Source of the DNA: Escherichia phage vB_EcoP_ACG-C91
Sequence record: NC_019403.1
Strand: one strand, 5' to 3'
DNA length: 43,731 bases
Numbering within the stretch: the stretch's first letter is position 1; each line of letters begins with the position of its first letter. Shown in pieces: positions 2,832-20,112 of this stretch. Position numbers and translations under genes: made by a program. The notes under the pieces are model-generated. The model was not told the origin of the DNA, ran no database searches, and worked only from the letters and a program-made list of their open reading frames with translations.

Positions 2832-2852
2832 ATTTACTTACACTATAAGGTG
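2832..2852 (+). promoter_or_regulatory. Weak phage-promoter-like sequence (ATTTACTTACACTATAAGG)
   Basis: Partial match to the CACTATAG core; immediately upstream of ORF 2859. Confidence 0.3.
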
Positions 2853-2858
2853 ATTACT

Positions 2859-3743
2859 ATGACTACTGAAAACACCCTCGTGTCTGTCCGTGAAGCTGCA
2901 ACCGCTGAAATCAAGCAACATTTAGACAATATCGGCACTTCTTACATCAAAGTTGGTGCTTGTCTGAATGAATTACGCGGTGATTTCGAAGGTCAAAAAG
3001 ACTTTTTAGCTTATGTAGAATCAGAGTTCGGCATCAAGAAGGCACAATGCTACAAGCTGATGAGTGTAGCCCGTGTCTTTGAAGGAGACGAACGCTTTAA
3101 AGGTGTGGCTATGCGTGTAATGCTGGCGCTTGTTCCTTTCGCTGATGAAAATATAATCATGGAGAAGGCCGCAGAACTCGCCGCAGATGGCAAGCTGGAC
3201 ACTAACGCCGTAAACGCCTTGATTGAGCCTAAGAAAGAGATAAAGACCGAAACGGTACAATCTAAGGCTGAGACAGTAAAACCGCAGGAGAGCGCGACTG
3301 AGGCCGCAGAATCACAGGAAATGCAAGCGCCGCAGGTAGTGCCACCCGCTAGCGAGCAGGAGGCCGACGAATCAGCACCATGGGGAGAGGAAAGCAAGCC
3401 GGAGGCACCGAAGGCAGCGCCGCTGGATAACACGGCTAATACCGAAAACGCCGCTATGGCTAGCCTCTTAGCACAAATTAAGGCACTGACCGAGCAATTA
3501 CAGGCAGCTAATGACCGCATTGCCTCCTTAAGCAGCGCACGCGAAAGCAAGAAGGCAGCCGCGCCTATGCTGCCGCAATTCAAATCTTCCTGCTTCTATG
3601 CTCGCTTAGGTTTAAGCGCTGAGGAGGCAACGAAGAAAACAGCAGTTAACAAGGCACGCCGCGAACTGGTTAAGCTAGGCTACGGCGAAGGCCATGAAGC
3701 ATGGCCCTTAATCTCTGAGGCAGTAGAAGAATTAACTAAGTAA
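2859..3743 (+). CDS. Early protein with DUF3102-like N-terminal domain and low-complexity acidic/Ala/Gln-rich C-terminal half
   Basis: Motif IKVGACLNELRGDFEGQKDFLAYVESEFGIKKAQCYKLMSVARVF resembles the DUF3102 signature (G-x-x-L-x-E...G-x-F-x-x-W/Y...G-I/F-S-x-x-x-A-x-x-Y-M-x-L/V-A) as I recall it; C-terminal half is compositionally biased with a coiled-coil-like stretch. Confidence 0.7.
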   Translation: MTTENTLVSVREAATAEIKQHLDNIGTSYIKVGACLNELRGDFEGQKDFLAYVESEFGIKKAQCYKLMSVARVFEGDERFKGVAMRVMLALVPFADENIIMEKAAELAADGKLDTNAVNALIEPKKEIKTETVQSKAETVKPQESATEAAESQEMQAPQVVPPASEQEADESAPWGEESKPEAPKAAPLDNTANTENAAMASLLAQIKALTEQLQAANDRIASLSSARESKKAAAPMLPQFKSSCFYARLGLSAEEATKKTAVNKARRELVKLGYGEGHEAWPLISEAVEELTK

Positions 3744-6527: not shown

Positions 6528-6548
6528 ATTTACCGGACACTATAGGAT
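6528..6548 (+). promoter_or_regulatory. Phage-RNAP promoter (ATTTACCGGACACTATAGGAT)
   Basis: Matches the window consensus ATTTAC(T/C)GGACACTATAGAAG, SP6-like CACTATAG core. Confidence 0.7.
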
Positions 6549-6891: not shown

Positions 6892-8880
6892 ATGGCTATT
6901 ATTCAGAATGTACCGTGTCCTGCCTGTCAAAAGAATGGACATGATATTACTGGCAACCATCTTATGATATTTGAGGATGGCGCGGGTTACTGTAACCGTG
7001 GGCACTTCCATGATAATGGCAGGCCATACTACCATAAGCCCGAAGGTGGCATCGAGATAACCGAGTTGCCCATTACTGGCAATATCAAATATACACCTTC
7101 TCAATTCAAAGAGATGGAGACGGAAGGGAAGATAAGCGACCCTAAGTTGCGCGCCATCGCACTTGGTGGTATGCGTATGAAAGACCGTTGGGAGGTCATG
7201 AATGAGCAAGAAAGGGCAGACCAAGAAGCAGAGTGGAAACTTGATGTTGAATGGTTCCTCACGCTTAAGCGTAAGAACCTTGTGTCCCGTCACATTCGAG
7301 GTGACATCGCAGCAATGTACGATGTGCGCGTTGGACACGATGAAGAGGGAAGAGTCAACCGTCACTATTATCCACGATATGAAAAGGGTGTGCTTGTTGG
7401 AGCAAAATGCCGGACGTTGCCGAAGGATTTTAAGTTCGGACACCTAGGTAAACTCTTTGGTATGCAAGACCTTTTCGGTATGAACACTTTGTCTCACGTG
7501 TTAGACAAGGGGAGACGAAAGGATTGCTTGCTTATTGTAGGTGGTGAACTTGATGCACTAGCAGCGCAGCAGATGCTCCTTGATTCTGCCAAGGGTACTA
7601 AGTGGGAAGGCCAGCCATACCATGTATGGTCTGTCAACAAAGGCGAGTCTTGCCTTGAAGAGATAGTGCAGAACCGTGAGCATATCGCCCAATTCAAGAA
7701 GATTATATGGGGTTTTGATGGGGATGAGGTAGGGCAGAAGCAGAACCAACAAGCTGCTCGCCTGTTTCCTGGCAAATCCTACATCCTCGAATATCCCTCT
7801 GGTTGCAAAGATGCTAACAAGGCATTGATGGCTGGCAAGGCTAAAGAGTTTGTTGATGCTTGGTTTAATGCCAAGTCATCTGATGAAGTCTTTGGTAGCC
7901 AGATTAAATCTATCGCATCTCAAAGGGGTAAGCTCAAGGCTGCACGTCCAGAGCAAGGGTTATCATGGCCTTGGCCTAAGCTGAACAAGGTAACGCTAGG
8001 TATTCGTAAGAACCAGCTTATCATTGTAGGTGCAGGTTCTGGTGTAGGTAAGACTGAGTTCCTTCGCGAAGTGGTTAAGCACCTCATTGAAGAACACGGT
8101 GAATCTGTAGGCATCATTTCTACAGAAGACCCAATGGTCAAGGTGTCCCGTGCTTTTATCGGCAAGTGGATTGATAAGCGTATTGAGTTACCGCCAACCA
8201 ACGACCCGAAAGAAGACGGATACCGTGAGGTGTTCGACTACACCGAGGAAGAAGCTAACGCTGCCATTGATTATGTGGCTGATACAGGAAAGCTATTTGT
8301 GGCTGACCTAGAAGGCGACTATTCTATGGAGAAGGTAGAGCAAACTTGCCTAGAGTTTGAGGCTATGGGCATTTCTAATATCATCATTGATAACTTAACG
8401 GGGATTAAATTAGATGAGCGTGCTTTTGGTGGGAAGGTTGGTGCACTTGATGAATGCGTCAAACGAATTGGTACTATCAAAGACCGACATGCGGTTACGA
8501 TTTTCCTTGTCTCTCACCTTACACGTCCTCCGGCAAACCGTACCCAACACGAAGAAGGTGGCGAAGTTATCCTTTCTGACTTCCGAGGCTCAGGCGCTAT
8601 CGGATTCTGGGCATCTTACGCCTTGGGGATTGAGCGTAATACAAGAGCTGAAACGCTTGATGAAAGGACTACCACGTACATCTCGTGTGTCAAAGACCGC
8701 GATCAAGGTATCTACACTGGAACCAAGGTCATGCTTAAGGGTGACATTCAAACCGGACGTTTAATGGAACCACAAGCTAGAACAAGGTCATTTGATACAG
8801 GTGAAACAAGGCAGCAAGAGGTGCCTGATTTACCGGACACTATAGAAGAGACAACCTTTGACGATGAACAGGAGTTTTAA
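6892..8880 (+). CDS. DNA primase/helicase (T7 gp4-like bifunctional)
   Basis: 662 aa; N-terminal Cys-rich zinc-binding region (CPACQ...CNRGHFH); Walker A GAGSGVGKTEF; acidic C-terminal tail ...DDEQEF. Confidence 0.95.
   Translation: MAIIQNVPCPACQKNGHDITGNHLMIFEDGAGYCNRGHFHDNGRPYYHKPEGGIEITELPITGNIKYTPSQFKEMETEGKISDPKLRAIALGGMRMKDRWEVMNEQERADQEAEWKLDVEWFLTLKRKNLVSRHIRGDIAAMYDVRVGHDEEGRVNRHYYPRYEKGVLVGAKCRTLPKDFKFGHLGKLFGMQDLFGMNTLSHVLDKGRRKDCLLIVGGELDALAAQQMLLDSAKGTKWEGQPYHVWSVNKGESCLEEIVQNREHIAQFKKIIWGFDGDEVGQKQNQQAARLFPGKSYILEYPSGCKDANKALMAGKAKEFVDAWFNAKSSDEVFGSQIKSIASQRGKLKAARPEQGLSWPWPKLNKVTLGIRKNQLIIVGAGSGVGKTEFLREVVKHLIEEHGESVGIISTEDPMVKVSRAFIGKWIDKRIELPPTNDPKEDGYREVFDYTEEEANAAIDYVADTGKLFVADLEGDYSMEKVEQTCLEFEAMGISNIIIDNLTGIKLDERAFGGKVGALDECVKRIGTIKDRHAVTIFLVSHLTRPPANRTQHEEGGEVILSDFRGSGAIGFWASYALGIERNTRAETLDERTTTYISCVKDRDQGIYTGTKVMLKGDIQTGRLMEPQARTRSFDTGETRQQEVPDLPDTIEETTFDDEQEF
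8827..8847 (+). promoter_or_regulatory. Phage-RNAP promoter embedded in the 3' end of the primase/helicase gene
   Basis: ATTTACCGGACACTATAGAAG exact consensus; encodes the DLPDTIEE residues of the helicase tail. Confidence 0.6.
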
Positions 8881-9041
8881 TGGAAATTATTAAACCAGTA
8901 TTGAATATCGGTATTGAAATCCTATTCATGCTTGTGATCGCAGATTATGCTGCACGATATGGATTCAAGAAAGCTGTGAAACTTATCGTTGCATCTGGTT
9001 TTATGATGTCAATGTTCTTTATTGTAACACGCCTTATCTAG
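8880..9041 (+). CDS. Small hydrophobic membrane protein (53 aa)
   Basis: ATG overlaps helicase stop (TAATGG); hydrophobic segments; below ORF-track cutoff. Confidence 0.3.
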   Translation: MEIIKPVLNIGIEILFMLVIADYAARYGFKKAVKLIVASGFMMSMFFIVTRLI

Positions 9042-9055
9042 TGTATTTATCAGGG

Positions 9056-9077
9056 CTTGTCTCACATGTGAGACAAG
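9056..9077. repeat. Conserved palindrome, extended to 22 bp (CTTGTCTCACATGTGAGACAAG) (copy 3)
   Basis: Perfect 22-bp palindrome. Confidence 0.7.
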
Positions 9078-9113
9078 CTCTTATTAAGTACATTAAATAA
9101 CTGGAGATTGATT

Positions 9114-9836
9114 ATGTATAAATTAGTATTGAATGCAGGTGATTATGTTCGTAACATCAATGAAGCCTCACGTCGTTATCGTTGCCGTGGTGTAGTAGCT
9201 CGTGTAAGTGAGAACATGTATCATGTAGAATATGATGGTGGTATTAAGGCTTCTTATCACAAGAAAACCGCACATAAATATCTTGAAAAGGTTGTAGAGG
9301 TAAACAATCAATGTAAGTGCATACATGATGAGGTTTGCGATAAGTGTGCACGTCAGGTAGTTAAAGCCTTTACCTTTGCTCAACGCTATGGTTCTATGTA
9401 TGGTGCTGGTAACAAGACCCTTGCAGAAGCAGCTTGGAAGACATTGCAGTTTGAGCGTTCAAATGGACGACGCACCACACTTAAGAAGGAGCGCCGCAAT
9501 GTAATCACTGGTAAGACTCAAAGTGAGATGATTAAGCAATATGGCACTGCATTAGGTGTTACGCAGTTTAATACTCGTGCATTGGGTAAATCCACAGGAC
9601 AAGCTATGGTGAAGATTGGCGAAGCCATGATGCATCCAAATGTACCTGTGCGAATCATGGATGTTGACCATGCAATCACAGAACATGGTACACCACGGCG
9701 TGTAGCTAATAATCATTTTGCCGACACTATAGAAGATATTATCCGTAAGCAAGAGTTGAAAGGTCTTCACATCTTGAATGGTGAAGAGTTACTGTATCTC
9801 CCTATCGTTACTGAAGAAACCTACGTGAATATCTAA
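9114..9836 (+). CDS. Hypothetical protein (241 aa)
   Basis: ORF track (9108..9836); start moved to ATG 9114 with GGAG RBS at 7-nt spacing; no family recognised. Confidence 0.65.
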   Translation: MYKLVLNAGDYVRNINEASRRYRCRGVVARVSENMYHVEYDGGIKASYHKKTAHKYLEKVVEVNNQCKCIHDEVCDKCARQVVKAFTFAQRYGSMYGAGNKTLAEAAWKTLQFERSNGRRTTLKKERRNVITGKTQSEMIKQYGTALGVTQFNTRALGKSTGQAMVKIGEAMMHPNVPVRIMDVDHAITEHGTPRRVANNHFADTIEDIIRKQELKGLHILNGEELLYLPIVTEETYVNI

Positions 9837-9846
9837 GGAGTTAATC

Positions 9847-10065
9847 ATGACTAAGGTATTAATTTATATGCGTGGACCTCATAAATGCTATGCAGTTGTA
9901 GCACCAGATGGTGTTAAGCCCTATGGTACTTCAAAAGGATTGGCATTAATAGGTGCTAGTCGTAGTGCAAGTTTCCAAATGGAACTTTTTGGTCATTGGA
10001 CTGAATGGCAATTCCGTGAGGATTTTAAAGTTGTTGGCAGCTTTATGGTGAAACATGCAAAATAA
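9847..10065 (+). CDS. Hypothetical protein (72 aa)
   Basis: ORF track; AAGGAG RBS. Confidence 0.6.
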   Translation: MTKVLIYMRGPHKCYAVVAPDGVKPYGTSKGLALIGASRSASFQMELFGHWTEWQFREDFKVVGSFMVKHAK

Positions 10066-10264
10066 ACACAGCCTTAAGATGTTTGATGGTCACGAAGACC
10101 TGCAAGCACAAATTACTAATCAAGCCTTCCTGTTTGCACAGTTAACTATGGCTGAAGCAAAGAAGAATAGTCTGACATGTGAGCAGGTTATCAAGGAGGC
10201 AACTTGGGAGCCACACCAAGGCAAATACATGGGCCAGAAACTAACTGTAACACGCAGTCGGTAA
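10055..10264 (+). CDS. Hypothetical protein (69 aa; alternative start ATG 10079)
   Basis: ORF track; overlaps previous gene by 11 nt. Confidence 0.5.
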   Translation: MQNKHSLKMFDGHEDLQAQITNQAFLFAQLTMAEAKKNSLTCEQVIKEATWEPHQGKYMGQKLTVTRSR

Positions 10265-10273
10265 GTCAAGGGT

Positions 10274-10291
10274 TGTCTCACACGTGAGACA
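10274..10291. repeat. Conserved palindrome variant TGTCTCACACGTGAGACA (copy 4), followed by a T-run
   Basis: Palindrome then GCCTTTTAT; possible terminator or processing hairpin. Confidence 0.6.
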
Positions 10292-10321
10292 GCCTTTTAT
10301 CATATTGATTGGAGGTGCATT

Positions 10322-10432
10322 ATGCCACGTGATTATGATTCTGATTGGGACTACTATGACTCAATGAATCCAAAACCTGAACATTCAGATGATTATTATT
10401 GGGTGGAGGAAATGTATGAAGATTGTTGATTG
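10322..10432 (+). CDS. Small acidic protein (36 aa) overlapping DNAP start
   Basis: ATG with strong GGAGGTG RBS; aromatic/acidic composition; below ORF-track cutoff. Confidence 0.3.
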
Positions 10433-12962
10433 GAAGAAGGAGGCAGAAGGCCGTATCCTTGTCATGGATGCGGAAGCTAAAGGTCTTCTTGATGCTATCC
10501 GCTATGGTCATCGTGAAGATGTACACATCATTTGCTGCATGGATTTGCTTACTACAGAGGAGTTCCTCTTCTTTGACCCATATGAGATGCGTGACCCTGA
10601 AGCAAGGGAACACCTGAAGGAATGGGAGGGCCATCAAGATGGAACCTTGGTTGACGGTGTAAACTTCCTGAAGCACTGTGAAGCCATTGTGTCACAGAAC
10701 TTCCTAGGCTATGACGGGCTTCTCTTTGAGAAAGCATTCCCTGACATCTGGAAGGGCTTTAACTATACCGAGAGGCGCGGCAAGGGCAGACTTCGTGCTG
10801 ACCTGTGCCCAGTGCGCGTCATGGATACGCTGGTGATGAGTCGCCTGTTAAACCCCGATAGACGCCTTCCTCCGCAAGCATACGCCAAAGGTATGGGTAA
10901 CGTTGCCCCTCACTCAATTGAGGCGCACGGCATCCGTATAGGTCGCTATAAACCGGAGAACGAGGACTGGTCTAAGTTGACCGACCACATGGTTCACCGT
11001 GTACGTGAGGACGTGGCTATCGGACGTGACCTATTCCTCTGGCTATTTAACGGAGAATGGACGGAGCACAAACGCCGTGGCGTGAACAAACGCACTGGCC
11101 TAGGCATTGAGACAGCCTTCCACATGGAATCCATTGTTGCGCTGGAGATGAGCCGTCAGGCCGAGCGTGGATTCCGTCTGGACATTGACAAAGCATTAGC
11201 GCGATGCGAAGAACTGGACGCTAAGATTGACGAGACAGTCGCAGCGTTCCGTCCGCACATGCCTATGCGTATTAAGTCTAAACCTTTTAAACCGGAAGAA
11301 AAGAATGAAGTATGCCAACGCGCAAATGAGTATGGAGCTAGCAACAATATACCTACTGTCCTTGACCCCTCACACTTTCTTCATGCCGAGAGACGAGGAG
11401 ATCGCAAGACAGTATGGAGTGTCACTACTAAGTCTGGTGATTGGTCGGCTAGTGTCAAGAAAGACTTTCCTCACCTTAGAGGAAACCGTAATGACACGCC
11501 AAGTATCAAGTGGATTGGCGCTTACTCGCCTGTTACTTTCGAAGAGATTCCCTTGGGTAACAGGGATACAGTTAAGCAAGTGCTCTATGATTATGGATGG
11601 AAAGGTGTTGAATTTAACGATACCGAGCAAGCGCATCTGGATGAGTATGGAGTGTTACCCAAGCCTTGGAGTGGGAAGATAAATGAAAAGTCCCTTACTT
11701 TATGGCAAGAGAGAGCCGCACGTGAAGGTAAAACAGTCCCTGATTGGTGCTTGGGTATCGCTGCATGGTACATACTCGTATCCCGTCGTGGTCAGATCCT
11801 CAACCGTGGTGACGTTGAAGCCTTCGACCAGAAGGGGGTGTGGCCTTCGCAAGCTGGTATACGAAAGTGTCGCGGCCTTGTACCTGTAGCATTTAACAAG
11901 GAGTTAGGAATCAATGCGCAGCAATACTACGAAAGGTACGGATGCTGGCCTACGTCAGACAAGGATGACGGAGAATGGCGTGTGCCAGCTATTGCTATTA
12001 GTATTGGAACTTCTACGTTCCGTATGCGTCATCGTAACGTGGTTAATATTCCTGCCCGTGGTTTGTATCCTTTACGTGATTTATTCATAGCCGGTAAAGG
12101 TAAGCTAATCCTTGGTTGTGATGGTGCTGGTCTTGAACTACGTGTACTGTCTCACTTCATGAATGACCCTGAATATCAAGATATTGTACTGCATGGTGAC
12201 ATTCACACCCATAATCAAATGAAGGCTGGTCTTCCTAAGCGTGACATGGCGAAGACATTTATATATGCCTTCCTATATGGGTCTGGTATAGCTAACCTTG
12301 CAGCAGTATGTGGTGTTACTGAGGAAGAAATGGAGGAAGTTGTGGCAAGATTTGAGGTTGAACTACCATCTCTTGCACGTCTTCGTGAGAATGTTATCGC
12401 ACAAGGTAACAAGTTTGGCTACCTACAAGCACCTGATGGTCATTGGGGTCGCATCCGTATGTCTGGTGGTGAACTTAAAGAGCACACTATGCTTAACGTA
12501 CTACTCCAGATGACTGGTTCTCTGTGTATGAAATACGCATTGGTCAGAGCGTTTGCAGTGATGCGCAAGGAAGGTGTGGCCTTAGATAGCATGGGAAACC
12601 CTTGCGGTATAGCTAACGTGCACGATGAAATCCAGATGGAAGTCCCTAAAGATGAGGTCTTGTATCTCAACTACGACTTGCCTTTCACCTTAGAAGGGTT
12701 CGAAACAGAGAAGGCTGCTGTGAAAGCAGTGTTCGATGCAGAGGGGAAACGTGTTCATGTGGATTCTGAAGGACGTATGTGGTCTGCTGCAAATCTCGTT
12801 AGTGTTGATGCTGATGCTGGTGTACTTCATTGCCAGCGTCGTTATCACCGTGCAGGGCATATCATTGCCGATGCAATGACTTGGGCGGGTCAGTACCTGA
12901 AGATGCGTTGTCCGATGGCAGGTGAGTATAAGATTGGTGCAAGTTGGAAGGAAACACACTGA
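10416..12962 (+). CDS. DNA polymerase, family A (T7 gp5-like)
   Basis: 848 aa from ATG 10416 (GGAGG RBS); motif A DGAGLELRVLSHF, motif B KTFIYAFLYGSG, motif C VHDEIQ. Confidence 0.95.
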   Translation: MKIVDWKKEAEGRILVMDAEAKGLLDAIRYGHREDVHIICCMDLLTTEEFLFFDPYEMRDPEAREHLKEWEGHQDGTLVDGVNFLKHCEAIVSQNFLGYDGLLFEKAFPDIWKGFNYTERRGKGRLRADLCPVRVMDTLVMSRLLNPDRRLPPQAYAKGMGNVAPHSIEAHGIRIGRYKPENEDWSKLTDHMVHRVREDVAIGRDLFLWLFNGEWTEHKRRGVNKRTGLGIETAFHMESIVALEMSRQAERGFRLDIDKALARCEELDAKIDETVAAFRPHMPMRIKSKPFKPEEKNEVCQRANEYGASNNIPTVLDPSHFLHAERRGDRKTVWSVTTKSGDWSASVKKDFPHLRGNRNDTPSIKWIGAYSPVTFEEIPLGNRDTVKQVLYDYGWKGVEFNDTEQAHLDEYGVLPKPWSGKINEKSLTLWQERAAREGKTVPDWCLGIAAWYILVSRRGQILNRGDVEAFDQKGVWPSQAGIRKCRGLVPVAFNKELGINAQQYYERYGCWPTSDKDDGEWRVPAIAISIGTSTFRMRHRNVVNIPARGLYPLRDLFIAGKGKLILGCDGAGLELRVLSHFMNDPEYQDIVLHGDIHTHNQMKAGLPKRDMAKTFIYAFLYGSGIANLAAVCGVTEEEMEEVVARFEVELPSLARLRENVIAQGNKFGYLQAPDGHWGRIRMSGGELKEHTMLNVLLQMTGSLCMKYALVRAFAVMRKEGVALDSMGNPCGIANVHDEIQMEVPKDEVLYLNYDLPFTLEGFETEKAAVKAVFDAEGKRVHVDSEGRMWSAANLVSVDADAGVLHCQRRYHRAGHIIADAMTWAGQYLKMRCPMAGEYKIGASWKETH

Positions 12963-13078
12963 TGGACAGGTTTGATATTGTTTGCCTATTCTCTACCTCC
13001 TTTCTTATATTCCTTATGCTTGCTTGCTATGGAAGTATGCGATTAGATATACCTGATGAAGAGGAGGGTTACGATTGA
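12962..13078 (+). CDS. Small hydrophobic protein (38 aa)
   Basis: ATG overlaps DNAP stop; hydrophobic core; below ORF-track cutoff. Confidence 0.3.
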   Translation: MDRFDIVCLFSTSFLIFLMLACYGSMRLDIPDEEEGYD

Positions 13079-13176
13079 TGCAGGCATCTTTTATTATTCT
13101 TGGAGTCATATTATTTATGGTAGTATTCTGGGCTTTCTCTGGCATTGACCCAGATTGTGATGGTAACTACGACTGA
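13078..13176 (+). CDS. Small hydrophobic membrane protein (32 aa)
   Basis: ATG with AGGAGG RBS; single predicted TM segment. Confidence 0.35.
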   Translation: MQASFIILGVILFMVVFWAFSGIDPDCDGNYD

Positions 13177-13244
13177 GTTATACTCAAGGTCACTTACGAG
13201 TGGCCTTTATGAATAACTTATTCCTACTTATTTTGTCTAACATG

Positions 13245-13265
13245 ATTTACTGGACACTATAGAAG
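13245..13265 (+). promoter_or_regulatory. Phage-RNAP promoter (ATTTACTGGACACTATAGAAG)
   Basis: Exact consensus. Confidence 0.75.
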
Positions 13266-13331
13266 GAAAACCTAGGTAATCTAGGTTTATAAGGTAGTAT
13301 AGGTAATTAAGTAAATATAGGAGATATAAAT

Positions 13332-13709
13332 ATGTCTATGGTAACTACTCTGGTATTCGTGGCTCAATACTTCCGTGGTCTGGCTAATAAGTTCAAGTCC
13401 AAGGCCATCAAAGCTATTGAGGTTCGCATCGAAGCAGTACAGACAGAGCAAGTTAAAGTGGAAGAACATCGTAGTTCTCAAATGATTGACTGTCACAACC
13501 GCTACTATGCATCTCGTGATGAATTAAATGCACGTCAAGTCAAAGAGGTTGAAGAAATGATGGCACGTCACCAGCAAGAGCGTGACAGCCTGAAAGCTGA
13601 ATTTGAAGAGAACAAGGCATCCATTGCTCTGGTACATCAAGCAGCATCTGATAGCCTGAAGAAAGAGATTGTTATGCTGGAAATCGAACTGGACAACTTG
13701 ACTAAATAA
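13332..13709 (+). CDS. Hypothetical protein (125 aa), predicted coiled coil
   Basis: ORF track; AGGAG RBS; heptad-like charged sequence. Confidence 0.7.
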   Translation: MSMVTTLVFVAQYFRGLANKFKSKAIKAIEVRIEAVQTEQVKVEEHRSSQMIDCHNRYYASRDELNARQVKEVEEMMARHQQERDSLKAEFEENKASIALVHQAASDSLKKEIVMLEIELDNLTK

Positions 13710-13715
13710 GGAGTT

Positions 13716-14015
13716 ATGATGGAAGAAGTGATTCAAGCTAAACATGTAAGTATCATCTTTCGTGATTTAGAGCAGCGTAAAGTTGCAGGCCATACCCGTT
13801 TGGCTAAAGAAGATGATACAGCAATCACTACTGTTGAACAAGCAGATGCCTATCGTGGGCCAGAGTTCACCCAAGGTGAAACCTGTCACCAATTGAGCCT
13901 GTCACTTTGTGACACTATGGCTATTGTAAATGTGCAAGAAGTGGAAGACGGCGAGTGTGTTAGTTACATCTACCCTCTAGACACTATTGCACGCATTAAG
14001 GTAATCCATAAATAA
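13716..14015 (+). CDS. Hypothetical protein (99 aa)
   Basis: ORF track; AAGGAG RBS. Confidence 0.65.
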   Translation: MMEEVIQAKHVSIIFRDLEQRKVAGHTRLAKEDDTAITTVEQADAYRGPEFTQGETCHQLSLSLCDTMAIVNVQEVEDGECVSYIYPLDTIARIKVIHK

Positions 14016-14033
14016 TTACTGGACACTATAGAA
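14013..14033 (+). promoter_or_regulatory. Phage-RNAP promoter variant (AATTACTGGACACTATAGAAC)
   Basis: Two mismatches from consensus. Confidence 0.6.
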
Positions 14034-14092
14034 CAATAGGTCGGCTTAGTTCGGCCTATGATTGTGTAGTGTAACAATAGGAGACTAAATAA

Positions 14093-14899
14093 ATGGCACG
14101 TGGTGATTTTGATTTTGGTGCTCAGGTTACTAAAGCTGAAGGTAAAGTATTTAAGAACCCTGAAGTTGGTGATCATGAAGCAGTAATCTCTGGCATCATT
14201 CATGTTGGTTCCTTTCAAGACATCTTTAAGAAAGGCAATACCACTGAAGTTAAGAAGCCAGCAAACTTTGTTCTTGTTAAGATTGTCCTGATGGGTGACG
14301 ATGATAAGAACGAAGATGGCTCTCGCATGGAACAATGGATGGCTGTGCCTCTGAAGTCTGGTGACAAGGCAACCTTGACTAAGTTCCTGAATGCAGTAGA
14401 CCCTAAAGAGTTGCTCGGTGGCTTCGATGACTTCATCGGGGAGTGCCTGACTGCAACTATGGTTGGCTCTGGTGACAAGAATGAAGACGGCTCATTCAAG
14501 TATGTTAACTGGAAAGGGTTCGGTGGTATGCCGGACAAGCTGAAGAAACTTGTCATTGCTCAGGTAGAAGAGGAAGGTCTGTCTATGACAGGTCATATCA
14601 CATTTGATAAGCTGACTAAAGAAATCATTGATGATATTCCTGCTAATCTGGTGCGTCAGTATTTACTGAACGAGACGCCTCGTGGTAAGAACCTGTCTGT
14701 TGCTGGCTCTCACGTAGAAGCAATCATCAAAGCTGCTCGTGAAGAAGACCCAGAGTGGAAGAAAGCCAAGAAGAAAGACGACGAAGATGCTACCCCAGCT
14801 AATCGCAAATCTTTGGATACTGGCGAGTCTGTCCCGCAAGAAGTGCCGGAAGCAGATAATGCGCCTGCACCGGAAATGGATGAGGACGCGGAATATTAA
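14093..14899 (+). CDS. Hypothetical replication-region protein with acidic C-terminal tail (possible ssDNA-binding protein)
   Basis: 268 aa; two internal GDxDKNEDGS repeats; ends ...PEMDEDAEY (acidic tail with terminal aromatic, as in phage SSBs); SSB assignment is inference from position and tail only. Confidence 0.7.
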   Translation: MARGDFDFGAQVTKAEGKVFKNPEVGDHEAVISGIIHVGSFQDIFKKGNTTEVKKPANFVLVKIVLMGDDDKNEDGSRMEQWMAVPLKSGDKATLTKFLNAVDPKELLGGFDDFIGECLTATMVGSGDKNEDGSFKYVNWKGFGGMPDKLKKLVIAQVEEEGLSMTGHITFDKLTKEIIDDIPANLVRQYLLNETPRGKNLSVAGSHVEAIIKAAREEDPEWKKAKKKDDEDATPANRKSLDTGESVPQEVPEADNAPAPEMDEDAEY

Positions 14900-14908
14900 G
14901 GAGGTCTG

Positions 14909-15127
14909 ATGAAGGTACAAATCGTAACACTGCACTGTAAAAAGGGGGTTACCACGCTCGGAGGTAATACTTTTCACTCCTTCTCCGAAGGGGAGATTTA
15001 CGCTGACCTGCACTACATCTGGCGCGACGGACAGCACGTGGTGAACTACAGCGACCCTGCGACTGGTAAACGCCACGGCGTGTCGCTTCCGGCGCACGAC
15101 ATTGCGCAGGTGAACACAGTTTTATAA
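14909..15127 (+). CDS. Hypothetical protein (72 aa)
   Basis: ORF track; AAGGAGG RBS. Confidence 0.65.
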   Translation: MKVQIVTLHCKKGVTTLGGNTFHSFSEGEIYADLHYIWRDGQHVVNYSDPATGKRHGVSLPAHDIAQVNTVL

Positions 15128-15128
15128 A

Positions 15129-15144
15129 GTCTCACACGTGAGAC
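15129..15144. repeat. Conserved palindrome GTCTCACACGTGAGAC (copy 5)
   Basis: Perfect palindrome directly after stop of ORF 14909..15127 and 15 bp upstream of a promoter. Confidence 0.7.
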
Positions 15145-15159
15145 AACTCGGTGTCCGGT

Positions 15160-15180
15160 ATTTACTGGACACTATAGAAG
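15160..15180 (+). promoter_or_regulatory. Phage-RNAP promoter (ATTTACTGGACACTATAGAAG)
   Basis: Exact consensus. Confidence 0.75.
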
Positions 15181-15232
15181 AGAAGAATTTTAATCGGCGA
15201 TAATGCCATAACCAACAAAAGGAGAATTTAAT

Positions 15233-15604
15233 ATGTTCGCTATTGAAACTATCGTAAACCGTGTTGTTAAAGGTGCTGATCTGGTATCCGTTGAGTCTTT
15301 CGTTATCGTCGATGAAGCCAACAAACTGGTAGCTGGCACTAAGGCTTATGATACTCGTGAAGAAGCTCAGGCTAAGATTGACAGCATGGGTAACTTCGCT
15401 ACTGGTCTGGAGTTCGCTCGTGCTTGCTTCCCTGAGCAGGCTGACAAAGCCCAGATTGGTAAGGCTAACATCGTAGCTGAATATCTGGATTGGATTGCTG
15501 CTGGTAAACCAGTGAAAGAAGTTAAAGCTGCTGAAGAAGCTGAAGCTCCGGCAGTAGAAGTGTCTGCACCGGAAGCTCCGGTTAGCGAAGAGGAAGAGTT
15601 TTGA
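15233..15604 (+). CDS. Hypothetical protein (123 aa) with acidic C-terminal tail ending ...SEEEEF
   Basis: ORF track; AAAGGAG RBS; C-terminal tail resembles the DNAP-binding tails of T7 gp2.5/gp4. Confidence 0.7.
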   Translation: MFAIETIVNRVVKGADLVSVESFVIVDEANKLVAGTKAYDTREEAQAKIDSMGNFATGLEFARACFPEQADKAQIGKANIVAEYLDWIAAGKPVKEVKAAEEAEAPAVEVSAPEAPVSEEEEF

Positions 15605-15663
15605 TAATAGCAGGTGTAGCCTCTGTTAGTCCTAGTTGACTATCACGCTCACCTCATCTAATG

Positions 15664-15696
15664 CCCTGTCTGCCTTAGTGTAGGCAGGGTCTTTTG
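15664..15696 (+). terminator. Rho-independent terminator
   Basis: 9-bp stem CCCUGUCUG/UAGGCAGGG (with G-U pairs) followed by UCUUUUG; near-copy of the capsid terminator hairpin. Confidence 0.6.
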
Positions 15697-15721: not shown

Positions 15722-15994
15722 ATGCCGACTATTGAATCTCGAATTGAACTGGACATTAGCTACAATGCAATCACCAGACAGTATATTGGGGTTGCCTATG
15801 ATTACAAAACTGGTGAGAAGCTAGTGGAGGTGAGACAATGGGATGACTATTGGTTAAGACAGAACCTCCATGATGCGGTGTCCTCCTTCTTGAAGGAGTG
15901 GCCTACATGCGACCAAACTTCGACTTCGGAGCTACAGTGTCGGAAGACAATAATCTCATCCTGTGGCCGACTGAAGGTAATCGAATCGCTTTAA
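15722..15994 (+). CDS. Hypothetical protein (90 aa), 3' end overlapping exonuclease gene
   Basis: ORF track; overlaps next gene by about 88 nt in a different frame, so C-terminal extent is uncertain. Confidence 0.35.
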   Translation: MPTIESRIELDISYNAITRQYIGVAYDYKTGEKLVEVRQWDDYWLRQNLHDAVSSFLKEWPTCDQTSTSELQCRKTIISSCGRLKVIESL

Positions 15995-16932
15995 TAGATG
16001 CCGATATGTTGCCTTACATCGTCGCGTATACAATCAGCGACATGACTTATGTACGAGCCACAACTCGTGTTAAGTCAGGACAAGTCCCATCAATCAAAGA
16101 TACGCCTGAGTGTAAGCAGGCGTGTGACCGTGTGAACTCCTTGCTTAACTCTTGGGTGTATGCAGCAGAATGTGATGCAGCTAAGTTATTCATGACGAAA
16201 TCAGAAGCTAACTTCCGTGTCCGCCTCGCATTCACCAAGCCTTATAAAGGTCAACGTAAGACCGAGAAGCCTCCATTCTTCTATGAATTGCGAGAGCATC
16301 TCTTAGAGGTTCACGGTGCAATCTTGGCAGATGGAGAGGAAGCAGACGACCTCATGAGTATCGCACAATGGGACAGCCACCGCCGCTTCCAGCAAGATAC
16401 AGGTAACGAGTTCCCTATCGGTAGTCCAGAGCATAAAGCATTCTCTGATACTTGCATCGTTTCCTTGGATAAGGATTTGATGATTGTTCCCGGTTGGCAT
16501 CTACAGCCGGGTCAAGAGAAGAAGTGGGTAGAGCCTATGGGCTGGCTTGAGCTACGCCGTAAGGCTAATGGGCAAGTCAAAGATCTAAAAGGTGCTGGCC
16601 TCATGTTCCACTATGCACAGATGATTATCGGTGATGATATTGATAACTATGCTGGCATACCAGGTCGTGGTGCTAAATACGCCTATGATCTTCTCAAAGA
16701 TTGTAAGACAGAGAAAGAGTTGTACATGGCAGTGCTGGGTGCTTACAAGGCTAAGTTCGGGCATGGACAAGTTAAAATTAAGAATTACCGAGGTGGTTAT
16801 CGTATCGGCAAAGCATTTGACCTAATGCTTGAGTGTGGTCGCTTAGCTCACATGGCAAGATTCAAGGGTGATATATGGCGAGCCGATAAGAACCCAATCT
16901 TGTGGGGAGATGAAGGATGGCTACAAAGTTAA
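15907..16932 (+). CDS. 5'-3' exonuclease (T7 gp6-like, FEN/PIN fold)
   Basis: Motifs DGEEADDLM, SLDKDL, IGDDIDNYAGIPGRG parallel T7 gene 6 exonuclease (EGDDVMG, SCDKDF, GDITDGYSGIAGWG); ATG 15907 with AAGGAG RBS. Confidence 0.85.
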   Translation: MRPNFDFGATVSEDNNLILWPTEGNRIALIDADMLPYIVAYTISDMTYVRATTRVKSGQVPSIKDTPECKQACDRVNSLLNSWVYAAECDAAKLFMTKSEANFRVRLAFTKPYKGQRKTEKPPFFYELREHLLEVHGAILADGEEADDLMSIAQWDSHRRFQQDTGNEFPIGSPEHKAFSDTCIVSLDKDLMIVPGWHLQPGQEKKWVEPMGWLELRRKANGQVKDLKGAGLMFHYAQMIIGDDIDNYAGIPGRGAKYAYDLLKDCKTEKELYMAVLGAYKAKFGHGQVKIKNYRGGYRIGKAFDLMLECGRLAHMARFKGDIWRADKNPILWGDEGWLQS

Positions 16933-18870: not shown

Positions 18871-18981
18871 ATGTCTGTATTTAAAATTTGTAAGTGCGGT
18901 TGCCGTTGCAATCTTCGTTGGTGTAAGGCGCTAGATGATGTCATATGGTATTGCCCTAAATGTAATACGGAGTATTTATGA
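18871..18981 (+). CDS. Small Cys-rich zinc-ribbon-like protein (36 aa, 8 Cys)
   Basis: MSVFKICKCGCRCNLRWCKALDDVIWYCPKCNTEYL; GAGGA RBS; stop overlaps ligase ATG (ATGA). Confidence 0.4.
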   Translation: MSVFKICKCGCRCNLRWCKALDDVIWYCPKCNTEYL

Positions 18982-19925
18982 ATATCTTCCAATTCCTAGG
19001 TCTTCCAGAAGACCACCGCAATCACCCATTCATGCTGGTGAAACATCGCGGTGAAGTGCCTGAGAAGAAATTAACTTTTCCATGTTATGCACAGGTAAAA
19101 CGAGATGGTATATTTAGTGCTGTGGTTGTTCGCAACGATGGTGTCGTTGGTGTCTTTGGACGCACTGGAAAGAAACTGGCTAACACGGAAACCTTGGAAG
19201 AATCTTATTCAGCTTTCCCTACTGGCATTTATCTCGGTGAGTTGCAATCTATGGCTATTGATGTCTACCTTGAAGCACTTTCTGGAGTAGTTAACCCTAA
19301 CCGCACTGAGCCACTGGATTTCATAGGCCAGCAGATTAAAGACAACCTGTATATTGACTTCTTCGATATGTTAACTATTAAGGCATTCCATGATGGATTC
19401 ACTGATGTTTCTTATCTCAAACGTTACGATGCTTTACATCGTCGCATCGGCGCTCATCTTAGCGGGTACAACGCTATCCTTCCTATTACTCCTTGCCATA
19501 ATGAGCGAGAAGTTGAAGCGTTTGCGCAAGAGCAAATAGACGCAGGCCGAGAGGGTGCTGTGTTTAAACTGGACTGTGATTATGAAGCAGGCCACAAAGG
19601 TTATCGTCAGACTAAAGAAGTCCGTAAGGTAACTTATGACCTTACTTGTATTGGCTTTGAAGAAGGCAAAGGTAAGTACAAAGGTAAGGTAGCTAACCTC
19701 ATTTTCAAATGGAAAGGAGGCAAGACAATCAAAGCTATGTTAGGTAAAGGGTGGACTCATGCAGATGCAGAACAGATGTTCCACGATATTAAACATGGTG
19801 GACGATTGAATGTCATTGGTAAAATCTTTGAGGTAAAAGGCCTTCAGGATTCAAGCAAGGGCAACATTCGTCTGCCCAAAGCGGGAGAATTAAGACATGA
19901 CAAAGATGAACCAGATTTCTTTTGA
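18978..19925 (+). CDS. ATP-dependent DNA ligase
   Basis: Nucleotidyl-transferase motif I K-x-DG present as AQVKRDGIF; size 315 aa. Confidence 0.85.
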   Translation: MNIFQFLGLPEDHRNHPFMLVKHRGEVPEKKLTFPCYAQVKRDGIFSAVVVRNDGVVGVFGRTGKKLANTETLEESYSAFPTGIYLGELQSMAIDVYLEALSGVVNPNRTEPLDFIGQQIKDNLYIDFFDMLTIKAFHDGFTDVSYLKRYDALHRRIGAHLSGYNAILPITPCHNEREVEAFAQEQIDAGREGAVFKLDCDYEAGHKGYRQTKEVRKVTYDLTCIGFEEGKGKYKGKVANLIFKWKGGKTIKAMLGKGWTHADAEQMFHDIKHGGRLNVIGKIFEVKGLQDSSKGNIRLPKAGELRHDKDEPDFF

Positions 19926-20112
19926 TAGCATGAAGGCAACTCGTGCAGTTGAGGTAGCAGAAGCTATCTTTGAAACTTTATCCTGTGGCATGGAATTGCC
20001 GTATACTTTACTGGCTGATGCAGAAGAGCTTGGTCTTTCTGTAGAAGCTATCCAAGAGAAGGTTGAAGAACTCTATGGTACAGACGAAGAAGAAACCGAC
20101 GATTTCATTTGA
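19897..20112 (+). CDS. Hypothetical acidic protein (71 aa)
   Basis: ORF track; overlaps ligase 3' end. Confidence 0.5.
   Translation: MTKMNQISFDSMKATRAVEVAEAIFETLSCGMELPYTLLADAEELGLSVEAIQEKVEELYGTDEEETDDFI

Follow-up and report, generated by a model that had tools for sequence, protein, structure and literature searches.

Acidic tails with a terminal aromatic residue on replication proteins of Escherichia phage vB_EcoP_ACG-C91, and a predicted single-stranded-DNA-binding protein

How might the replication proteins of an SP6-like phage be held together? We examined this question in a 43,731-nucleotide stretch of DNA (NC_019403.1; "the window") that makes up the entire genome of Escherichia phage vB_EcoP_ACG-C91, an SP6/K1E-like phage of the Autographiviridae (Molineuxvirinae) whose replication region is 93–94% identical to those of K1E, K1-5, and other Vectrevirus phages. 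Three proteins encoded there—the primase/helicase and the products of two open reading frames (ORFs) beginning at positions 14093 and 15233—end in acidic tails with a terminal aromatic residue. They correspond to gp9, gp16, and gp18 of K1E, whose numbering we use for the two ORFs, and to gp10, gp18, and gp20 of SP6. The tails are conserved and co-vary between clades, and gp16 is modeled with an OB fold and is very probably the phage's protein for binding single-stranded DNA (SSB). Our best explanation, to which we give a probability of roughly 0.6, is that gp16 serves as the SSB, that the helicase carries a tail module homologous to that of gp16, that gp18 is a third tail-bearing accessory, that the tails dock in a common basic pocket, and that a second peptide, FDFGA, docks gp16 and the phage exonuclease on one partner.

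The tails within and between genomes

An earlier note on this DNA had claimed that three replication-region proteins end in such tails, and all three are present in the sequence exactly as claimed: the primase/helicase ends in IEETTFDDEQEF (...DDEQEF), gp16 in APAPEMDEDAEY (...DEDAEY), and gp18 in APEAPVSEEEEF (...SEEEEF). Its identification of the first protein as a primase/helicase also stood, with profile matches describing the T7 gp4 type, a zinc-finger/Toprim primase fused to a DnaB-like helicase. The tail-bearing proteins and their tails are as follows (pLDDT, predicted local distance difference test).

6892–8880, + strand: primase/helicase, T7 gp4 type, K1E gp9 (phrog_239, 4.5e-186; Pfam DnaB_C, 6.6e-15; Toprim_2, 3e-4); ends ...FDDEQEF
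8785–8877, + strand: C-terminal tail module of the helicase, RSFDTGETRQQEVPDLPDTIEETTFDDEQEF, a homolog of the gp16 tail
14093–14899, + strand: gp16-like protein (K1E gp16 / SP6 gp18), predicted SSB
14777–14896, + strand: disordered acidic tail of gp16, residues 229–268, ...MDEDAEY (pLDDT <50, net charge -12)
15233–15604, + strand: gp18-like protein (K1E gp18 / SP6 gp20), small partner with a tail and without an OB fold
15515–15601, + strand: Ala/Glu/Pro linker and tip of gp18, residues 95–123, ...SEEEEF (pLDDT <50 at 101–120, net charge -8)

How unusual are such tails within the genome? Scoring a tail as a terminal F, Y, or W with at least three D or E among the preceding seven residues, we found four among 57 non-overlapping + strand ORFs, a crude set: those of the primase/helicase, gp16, gp18, and DNA ligase, all located in the DNA-metabolism module. 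Termini sampled from each protein's own composition (20,000 trials) gave a mean of 0.33 tails, with at least four in 0.02% of trials (P ≈ 2e-4). Among the class I/II genes of T7, such a tail is found only on gp2.5 and gp4.

The tails are retained in homologs down to ~30% identity while the linkers that carry them diverge. Conservation was assessed in a gp16 alignment (n = 25), a gp18 family (n = 27), eight further GenBank genomes (Molineuxvirinae, Colwellvirinae, and Gajwadongvirus), and 41 IMG/VR loci. Within the gp16 family (down to 34% identity), 23 of the 25 members end in E-[YF] and the other two in DFS, with the tail consensus ...LDTGxxxPQxVPxAxNxPAPxMDExxE[YF]. An acidic run followed by F closes ~20 of the 27 gp18 family members (down to ~27% identity). 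For each of helicase, gp16, and gp18, the tail is present in 7/8 of the further GenBank genomes; the helicase's terminal EF/EY is retained in the same proportion and also in the IMG/VR loci, where the tail pattern is as in the GenBank genomes. In none of those eight genomes does such a tail occur on the DNA polymerase, exonuclease, endonuclease VII, phosphoesterase, portal, capsid, or terminase. In Proteus phage PM 93 (7931–9908), the primase/helicase is split into two overlapping ORFs by a frameshift or sequencing error, and the C-terminal piece still ends in …QDEIEEF.

The three tails also change together. All of them end in ...E-Y in the Klebsiella-phage clade. In the Pseudomonas Uliginvirus clade, the tail Phe of gp16 (…EVFE/…QTFD/…EFGE) and gp18 (…AFEG/…ESFS/…TFE) is not the last residue in any of the three genomes, having one or two more behind it, and the helicase likewise runs past its Phe in two of the three (…ETFD/…KTFE). 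Because these tail changes are coordinated, they suggest that the acceptor pocket is altered in the Uliginvirus clade. The GenBank and IMG/VR comparisons thus bear out the tails as a conserved, co-varying feature of replication-module proteins. In this they resemble one docking signal held in common by such proteins, and the interpretation given in the earlier note is supported in part.

Likeness between the helicase and gp16 tails extends beyond the acidic run. The helicase tail (RSFDTGETRQQEVPD…DDEQEF) and the gp16 tail (KSLDTGESVPQEVPE…DEDAEY) are identical at 13 of 34 positions (pairwise E 4e-6, over ~30 residues), and the helicase module follows the pattern S[FL]DTGE..QEVP[DE]...D[DE]xxE[FY]. 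The DNA encoding the two is only ~55% identical, with many synonymous differences, and the two modules change in parallel in SP6, PM93, and Era103. This combination indicates selection on the tail peptide; recent gene conversion as the source of the likeness is ruled out by the low DNA identity and the differing synonymous positions.

A phage promoter lies inside the helicase tail coding sequence.

8830–8850, + strand: SP6/K1E-type phage promoter TTACCGGACACTATAG, one of 15 matches in the window

Read in frame, this promoter (TTACCGGACACTATAGAAGAG) encodes LPDTIEE, so the promoter core supplies part of the acidic tail; SP6 shows an equivalent overlap (GDTIEE).

Two further proteins have ends that are possibly related to the tails.

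19899–19922, + strand: C terminus of DNA ligase (gene 18978–19925), DKDEPDFF, a weak, possibly related tail
20080–20109, + strand: acidic tail of a K1E gp25-like ORF (19897–20112; phrog_5860, function not named), ...TDEEETDDFI, possibly related

The ligase is the fourth tail-bearing ORF counted above and had been overlooked in the earlier note. Its tail, short and only mildly acidic, lies past the Pfam ligase OB domain, which stops at residue 306; many but not all relatives have a terminal D-[FY] (ends …[PAG]D[FYV…]), and an acidic-aromatic end is missing from the T7 ligase. For the gp25-like ORF, the acidic tail is conserved in Molineuxvirinae and the aromatic residue is inconsistent, with relatives often showing an acidic run plus Y. 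Since neither keeps its terminal aromatic residue consistently, we downgraded both from full membership of the set. Elsewhere, an Ocr-like anti-restriction protein (2048–2419, phrog_2568) has an acidic end that lacks an aromatic residue, as does T7 gp0.3.

The OB-fold protein gp16, its partner gp18, and their neighbors

Which of gp16 and gp18 is the SSB? The earlier note had left this choice as not resolvable by eye; structure prediction answers it in favor of gp16. The AlphaFold2 model of gp16, built on the 25-sequence alignment, is confident (mean pLDDT 77.6; predicted template-modeling score 0.71) and has these parts.

14105–14128, + strand: N-terminal peptide DFDFGAQV, disordered but conserved (F6, G9, and A10 invariant in the 25-sequence alignment)
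14168–14524, + strand: OB-fold core, residues 26–144 (pLDDT 82–94)
14534–14746, + strand: helical domain, residues 148–218, with helices 148–161, 176–181, 184–190, and 207–218 (pLDDT 85–93)

The predicted core comprises strands 26–47, 50–53, 57–66, and 80–86, helices 94–102 and 111–114, and strands 118–129 and 135–144, forming a β-barrel with an inserted helix in OB topology. Its fold matches are proteins that bind single-stranded DNA (ssDNA), the closest solved fold being PrgE (PDB 8s4s). One of the two ORFs thus has the OB fold, so the outcome that the earlier note had named as speaking against its proposal—no such fold in either—was not what we found.

No SSB family matched any other early or middle ORF in Pfam, PHROG, or NCBIfam. 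Two other early proteins considered as alternative SSBs (2850–3743 and 9108–9836) were rejected: nothing in PDB sequences or NCBIfam matched them, and neither has a tail. Because gp16 has the OB model and no other SSB match was found, gp16 is the SSB candidate and gp18 is not. A literature search found no paper naming the SSB of SP6-like phages.

To what family, then, does gp16 belong? Searched with its 25 homologs against Pfam at E up to 10, gp16 gave no match to gp2.5 (PF21265), bacterial SSB (PF00436), or DUF669; phmmer and profile searches of PDB sequences, among which gp2.5 chains are expected, returned no SSB and nothing relevant. Aligning the gp16 alignment by hhalign with a 21-sequence gp2.5 alignment and with the single N4 SSB sequence gave probabilities of 0.1% and 0.2%, respectively. 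Since every sequence and profile link failed, we rejected membership in the gp2.5 and N4-SSB families and keep gp16 outside both.

Structure comparison may point elsewhere. Foldseek matches of gp16 among viral models (BFVD) are to uncharacterized phage proteins only: a DUF669 protein (E 1e-4), Xp10 37L (5e-5), and proteins of Ralstonia phiKMV-like phages (~1e-6) and of Acinetobacter phiKMV-like phages too, with low template-modeling scores of 0.3–0.45. NCBIfam model NF046043 (NGO0469 family, "phage replication initiation protein") matches gp16 at 20.6 bits (E 2.6e-4) against a cut-off of 75 bits; 20 of the 25 gp16 homologs match it (best E 2.5e-13), none above the cut-off. Sub-threshold matches to the same model occur in phiKMV ORF21 and Xp10 37L, which occupy the same slot as gp16, between the DNA polymerase and an exonuclease/endonuclease VII pair, the order of that slot being retained in both phages. 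In LUZ19 the slot is filled by Gp21, which ranks with the most abundant of the early/middle phage proteins (PMC3604761). A connection between DUF669 and the experimentally characterized N4 SSB was drawn by Kazlauskas et al. (2016), who predicted that acidic-tailed DUF669/N4-SSB-like proteins are highly diverged OB-fold SSBs of phages without known SSBs (PMC4889955). We place gp16 near this superfamily and not inside it, because the link could not be confirmed by sequence.

The second tail-bearing ORF, gp18, is labeled "hypothetical protein ACG-C91_0023" in the record. Its model shows a predicted β-hairpin plus three-helix domain of ~90 residues, from which an Ala/Glu/Pro linker leads to -EEEEF; the whole protein has an isoelectric point (pI) of 4.4 and a net charge of -12.5. 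Fold and family searches of gp18 returned no recognizable fold or family and no solved relative, and it is not an OB fold. The earlier note's view of gp18 as a likely replisome component is therefore tentative: synteny, co-occurrence, and the tail speak for it, and no recognizable fold does.

The distributions of gp16 and gp18 match. Each was found by tblastn in 214 of 50,697 phage records with an identical genus breakdown, and each is annotated as "hypothetical" in every record among the matches listed. Even in distant IMG/VR loci, where gp16 is ~38% identical, a short gp18-like ORF still lies between gp16 and the exonuclease. The neighborhood contains the following further features.

10389–12962, + strand: family A DNA polymerase (Pfam DNA_pol_A, phrog_17), candidate tail acceptor
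14016–14036, + strand: phage promoter TTACTGGACACTATAGAAC directly upstream of gp16, then an AGGAGA ribosome-binding site
14909–15127, + strand: gp17-like small ORF between gp16 and gp18 (phrog_5791, function not named), of uncertain membership in the system
15162–15182, + strand: phage promoter TTACTGGACACTATAGAAGAG directly upstream of gp18, then an AAGGAGA ribosome-binding site
15663–15690, + strand: terminator-like hairpin (11-pair stem) after gp18, with the T run CTTTTG
15907–16932, + strand: 5'-3' (FEN-type) exonuclease (phrog_107, Pfam 5_3_exonuc) with a gp16-type N-terminal peptide
15916–15939, + strand: exonuclease N-terminal peptide NFDFGATV (motif match)

The promoters at 14016 and 15162 are of SP6/K1E type (TTACTGGACACTATAGAA), each with a strong ribosome-binding site, and PM93 has an annotated terminator at the equivalent place after gp18. 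By analogy with T7 promoter φ2.5, one would expect gp16 and gp18 to be strongly expressed from such an arrangement. Homologs of the gp17-like ORF occur at the equivalent position in SP6, PM93, Era103, VP-HS15, and Nerthus.

Three side observations follow. The SP6-type promoter core, scanned over the window with up to three mismatches, has 15 matches (e.g., at 6530, 8830, 13247, 14016, 15162, 18327, 23402, 38583, and 40261) against 1.2 expected, ~13 of them intergenic on the + strand; the local consensus is TTAC[CT]GGACACTATAG, not the SP6 TTAGGTGACACTATAG. The longest-ORF start of the DNA polymerase gives 857 residues against 848–850 in K1E, SP6, and PM93 (annotated or ORF-called), so the true start is probably a few codons further downstream. 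Finally, RefSeq and PHROGs label the gp15-like ORF (13332–13709) as a "polysaccharide chain length determinant protein"; it has 125 residues, is probably coiled-coil, lies within the replication module, and is found only in close relatives (SP6), and the label looks like an over-transfer.

Docking partners and competing explanations

What might the tails bind? In T7, gp4 tails bind the front and thioredoxin-binding-domain (TBD) basic patches of the polymerase gp5, and gp2.5 tails compete for them (bioRxiv 10.64898/2026.05.20.726333); loss of gp2.5 F232 abolishes polymerase binding. The ACG-C91 polymerase is 34% identical to T7 gp5 over palm and fingers. The segment holding the T7 front basic patch (KWKRRW; K587, K589, R590, and R591) is only partly aligned in BLASTP against T7 gp5 and, in a MAFFT alignment with T7 gp5, is deleted in 8/8 SP6-like polymerases. 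Therefore, docking cannot work exactly as in T7, and the part of the earlier note that drew on the T7-type polymerase patches does not carry over as it stands. An insertion in the polymerase thumb (residues 287–393) aligns with the T7 TBD and is longer, with conserved R335, R339, K348, K357, and K358. Judged from the alignment, it is the only remaining candidate acceptor of T7 basic-patch type. Docking of the tails on the polymerase is thus plausible by analogy, and the co-variation of the three tails across clades lends indirect support to a common acceptor.

A second short peptide links gp16 to the exonuclease. The exonuclease begins MRPNFDFGATV, and a six-frame scan of the window for F[DN][FALYW]G[AS] gave two matches only, at the N termini of gp16 and the exonuclease, which follow the common pattern [DN]F[DN][FY]G[AG]x[VI]. 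In gp16 the peptide lies within residues 1–18, disordered in the model (pLDDT <50). When a hidden Markov model of the gp16 N terminus was run on 2,365 ORFs, seven exonuclease orthologs ranked directly behind nine gp16 proteins. The motifs of the two proteins are also paired across clades: FDFGA goes with F[DNE]FGA, FDYGG with F[DN]YGG, FDYGV with FDYGV, and FNYGT with FNYGC. The third base differs in 4/5 codons between the gp16 and exonuclease motifs; the constraint therefore acts on the peptide, and an RNA-level cause of the common motif is ruled out by these synonymous differences. Two known systems offer parallels: the N-terminal arm of PrgE binds the neighboring monomer on ssDNA (PMC11137577), and the T7 SSB specifically stimulates the gene 6 exonuclease, for which the gp2.5 tail is required (PMC4124056).

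How might these parts work together? Taking T7 gp4 and gp2.5 as the model, each flexible tail may place its final aromatic residue and carboxylate in one and the same basic pocket, most likely in the polymerase thumb insertion corresponding to the T7 TBD, so that helicase, SSB, and gp18 would exchange on the polymerase. In addition, the tail of the SSB may cover the protein's own DNA-binding cleft. The FDFGA peptide would probably dock gp16 and the exonuclease on one partner, either the gp16 OB domain (compare the PrgE arm) or gp18. By presenting an arm like that of the SSB, the exonuclease could dock on SSB-coated DNA, which would link primer removal to it. In this scheme, gp18 is most likely a third, abundant tail-bearing accessory of the replication machine, acting as an adaptor or as a competitor for the docking site; we infer this role, like the ssDNA binding of gp16 and the identity of the acceptor site, from the observations above. 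A more ambitious version is possible but decidedly tentative: two co-evolving short linear motifs, the C-terminal tail module and the N-terminal FDFGA, would wire the SP6-like/Colwellvirinae replisome, with gp18 as a dedicated adaptor joining the SSB-coated lagging strand, primer removal, and the polymerase, a layer absent from T7.

Several observations weigh against this scheme, beginning with the front-patch deletion described above. Relatives of gp16 in phiKMV and Xp10 lack tails of this kind, so the tail is dispensable for the basic function of the family. The phages with the tail system are those of the SP6-like/Colwellvirinae lineage and, independently, T7. The nearest named family model says "replication initiation protein," at a match far under its cut-off. 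A few distant gp18-like proteins are without the terminal aromatic residue, and casting gp18 as a replisome accessory is guilt by association.

Could the tails instead address the host? The C-terminal tip of E. coli SSB, …MDFDDDIPF, is a docking peptide in which a disordered linker leads to an acidic run and a final Phe. The tails, gp18's especially, might imitate this tip to draw in or tie up the proteins that interact with host SSB—nucleases, helicases, PriA, Pol III chi, and RNase HI are candidates—in place of binding the phage polymerase. The gp16 tip PAPxMDExxE[YF] does resemble the host tip in its M-D, acidic run, and terminal aromatic; gp18 consists of a globular domain, flexible linker, and tip, with no DNA-replication fold and its own promoter; and the loss of the front patch from the polymerase fits as well. 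However, the three tails co-vary between clades whose shared hosts have SSB tips that hardly differ, a pattern that speaks for an acceptor encoded by the phage and evolving with the tails, and the helicase bears the same module, as in T7, where the phage polymerase is the acceptor. We therefore consider host mimicry unlikely.

Nor is it probable, in our estimate, that gp16 is a replication-initiation or a strand-annealing/recombination protein with an OB-like domain, leaving host SSB to work at the fork. The sole named family with any sequence signal is indeed NF046043, "replication initiation," but all its matches are well below the cut-off and we found no experimental basis for the name. A 2022 paper treats DUF669-containing proteins as distant homologs of annealing proteins (PMC9145550), and T7 gp2.5 is annotated as annealing DNA, too; annealing and SSB roles are, however, not mutually exclusive. 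Against this alternative, the fold matches of gp16 are ssDNA binders, Kazlauskas et al. favor an SSB function for the superfamily, and the acidic aromatic tail, the gene's own promoter, and the abundance of the LUZ19 slot protein fit a stoichiometric SSB.

For gp18 alone, one may ask whether it is an acidic DNA mimic or anti-nuclease like T7 gp5.9, a RecBCD inhibitor, or a pure decoy regulating tail-binding sites, and no structural part of the replisome. Its gene lies immediately upstream of the exonuclease, much as T7 gp5.9 (in the 5.3–5.9 segment) lies just upstream of gene 6; it is strongly acidic, sits behind two promoters and before a terminator, and yielded no replication-related fold. 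Yet the aromatic end of gp18 is conserved and varies in step with the tails of helicase and gp16, which would be needless for a DNA mimic; T7 gp5.9 is without such a terminus; and a distribution matching that of gp16 argues for a gp16-linked role. We regard this alternative as very unlikely. One could also take the tails for a chance product of composition in acidic early proteins, serving no common function, a notion encouraged by other acidic ends (EEEEEE on the Ocr-like ORF, and those of gp25 and a kinase); this is extremely unlikely given the tails' rarity by chance within the genome, the conservation of the terminal aromatic residue to ~30% identity despite diverging linkers, the coordinated changes across clades, and the homology of the helicase and gp16 tails.

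Relation to known systems

Phages of the SP6/K1E/K1-5 type are widely used, SP6 for its RNA polymerase in the laboratory and the K1 and Klebsiella capsule phages in therapy, and their SSB has never been annotated; assigning gp16 to this role is a concrete annotation. Because phage SSBs trigger several anti-phage defense systems, the identity of the SSB gene matters for reading escape mutants. If gp16 is the SSB, the phage provides a second and independent case of tail docking on the T7 principle, with a non-homologous OB-fold protein at its base. The tail module, the strictly linked gp18, and the SSB/exonuclease motif offer testable hypotheses of protein–protein interaction that hang on short, mutable peptides.

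How does this arrangement compare with that of T7? In both, a gp4-type helicase and an OB-fold SSB (a candidate here) have disordered acidic tails with a terminal aromatic residue (T7 gp4 …SNDTDF and gp2.5 …DEDGDF), a family A polymerase has a thumb insertion at the TBD position, and the SSB gene lies behind its own phage promoter. The T7 SSB is functionally tied to the exonuclease via its tail. Unlike in T7, gp16 is not a detectable homolog of gp2.5 and the front basic patch is deleted. Moreover, the helicase and SSB tails here have a ~30-residue module in common, beyond the acidic run; tails are borne by a third protein, gp18, and perhaps by ligase and gp25, where T7 class I/II genes have them on gp2.5 and gp4 only; and the SSB and exonuclease have an N-terminal motif in common, none having been noticed in T7 gp2.5 or gp6.

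With the DUF669/N4-SSB-like proteins, gp16 shares a diverged OB-like fold, an acidic C-terminal tail, and a genome with no other known SSB. Its Foldseek matches to a DUF669 protein and to the slot proteins of phiKMV-like and Xp10 phages, of low template-modeling score, and its sub-threshold NF046043 matches, in common with the phiKMV and Xp10 slot proteins, may point the same way. It differs in that 0/25 gp16 members match Pfam DUF669 and no hhalign signal to N4 SSB was found, and in that N4 SSB, phiKMV gp21, and Xp10 p37 are without the acidic aromatic tip. PrgE, an atypical OB-fold SSB of the conjugative plasmid pCF10, is more remote, with 15% identity, 144 residues, no acidic aromatic tail, and its conjugative-plasmid context, and its N-terminal arm may serve as a parallel for the FDFGA peptide. 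The gp16 tip …MDEDAEY is similar in style to the …DDDIPF of E. coli SSB, but gp16 has no PF00436 match, and here several proteins carry the tip, whereas in E. coli one SSB recruits many partners. Overall, the system is a variant of the tail hub of T7/E. coli-SSB type, set on a different OB-fold family and with an extra tail-bearing protein and a second common motif.

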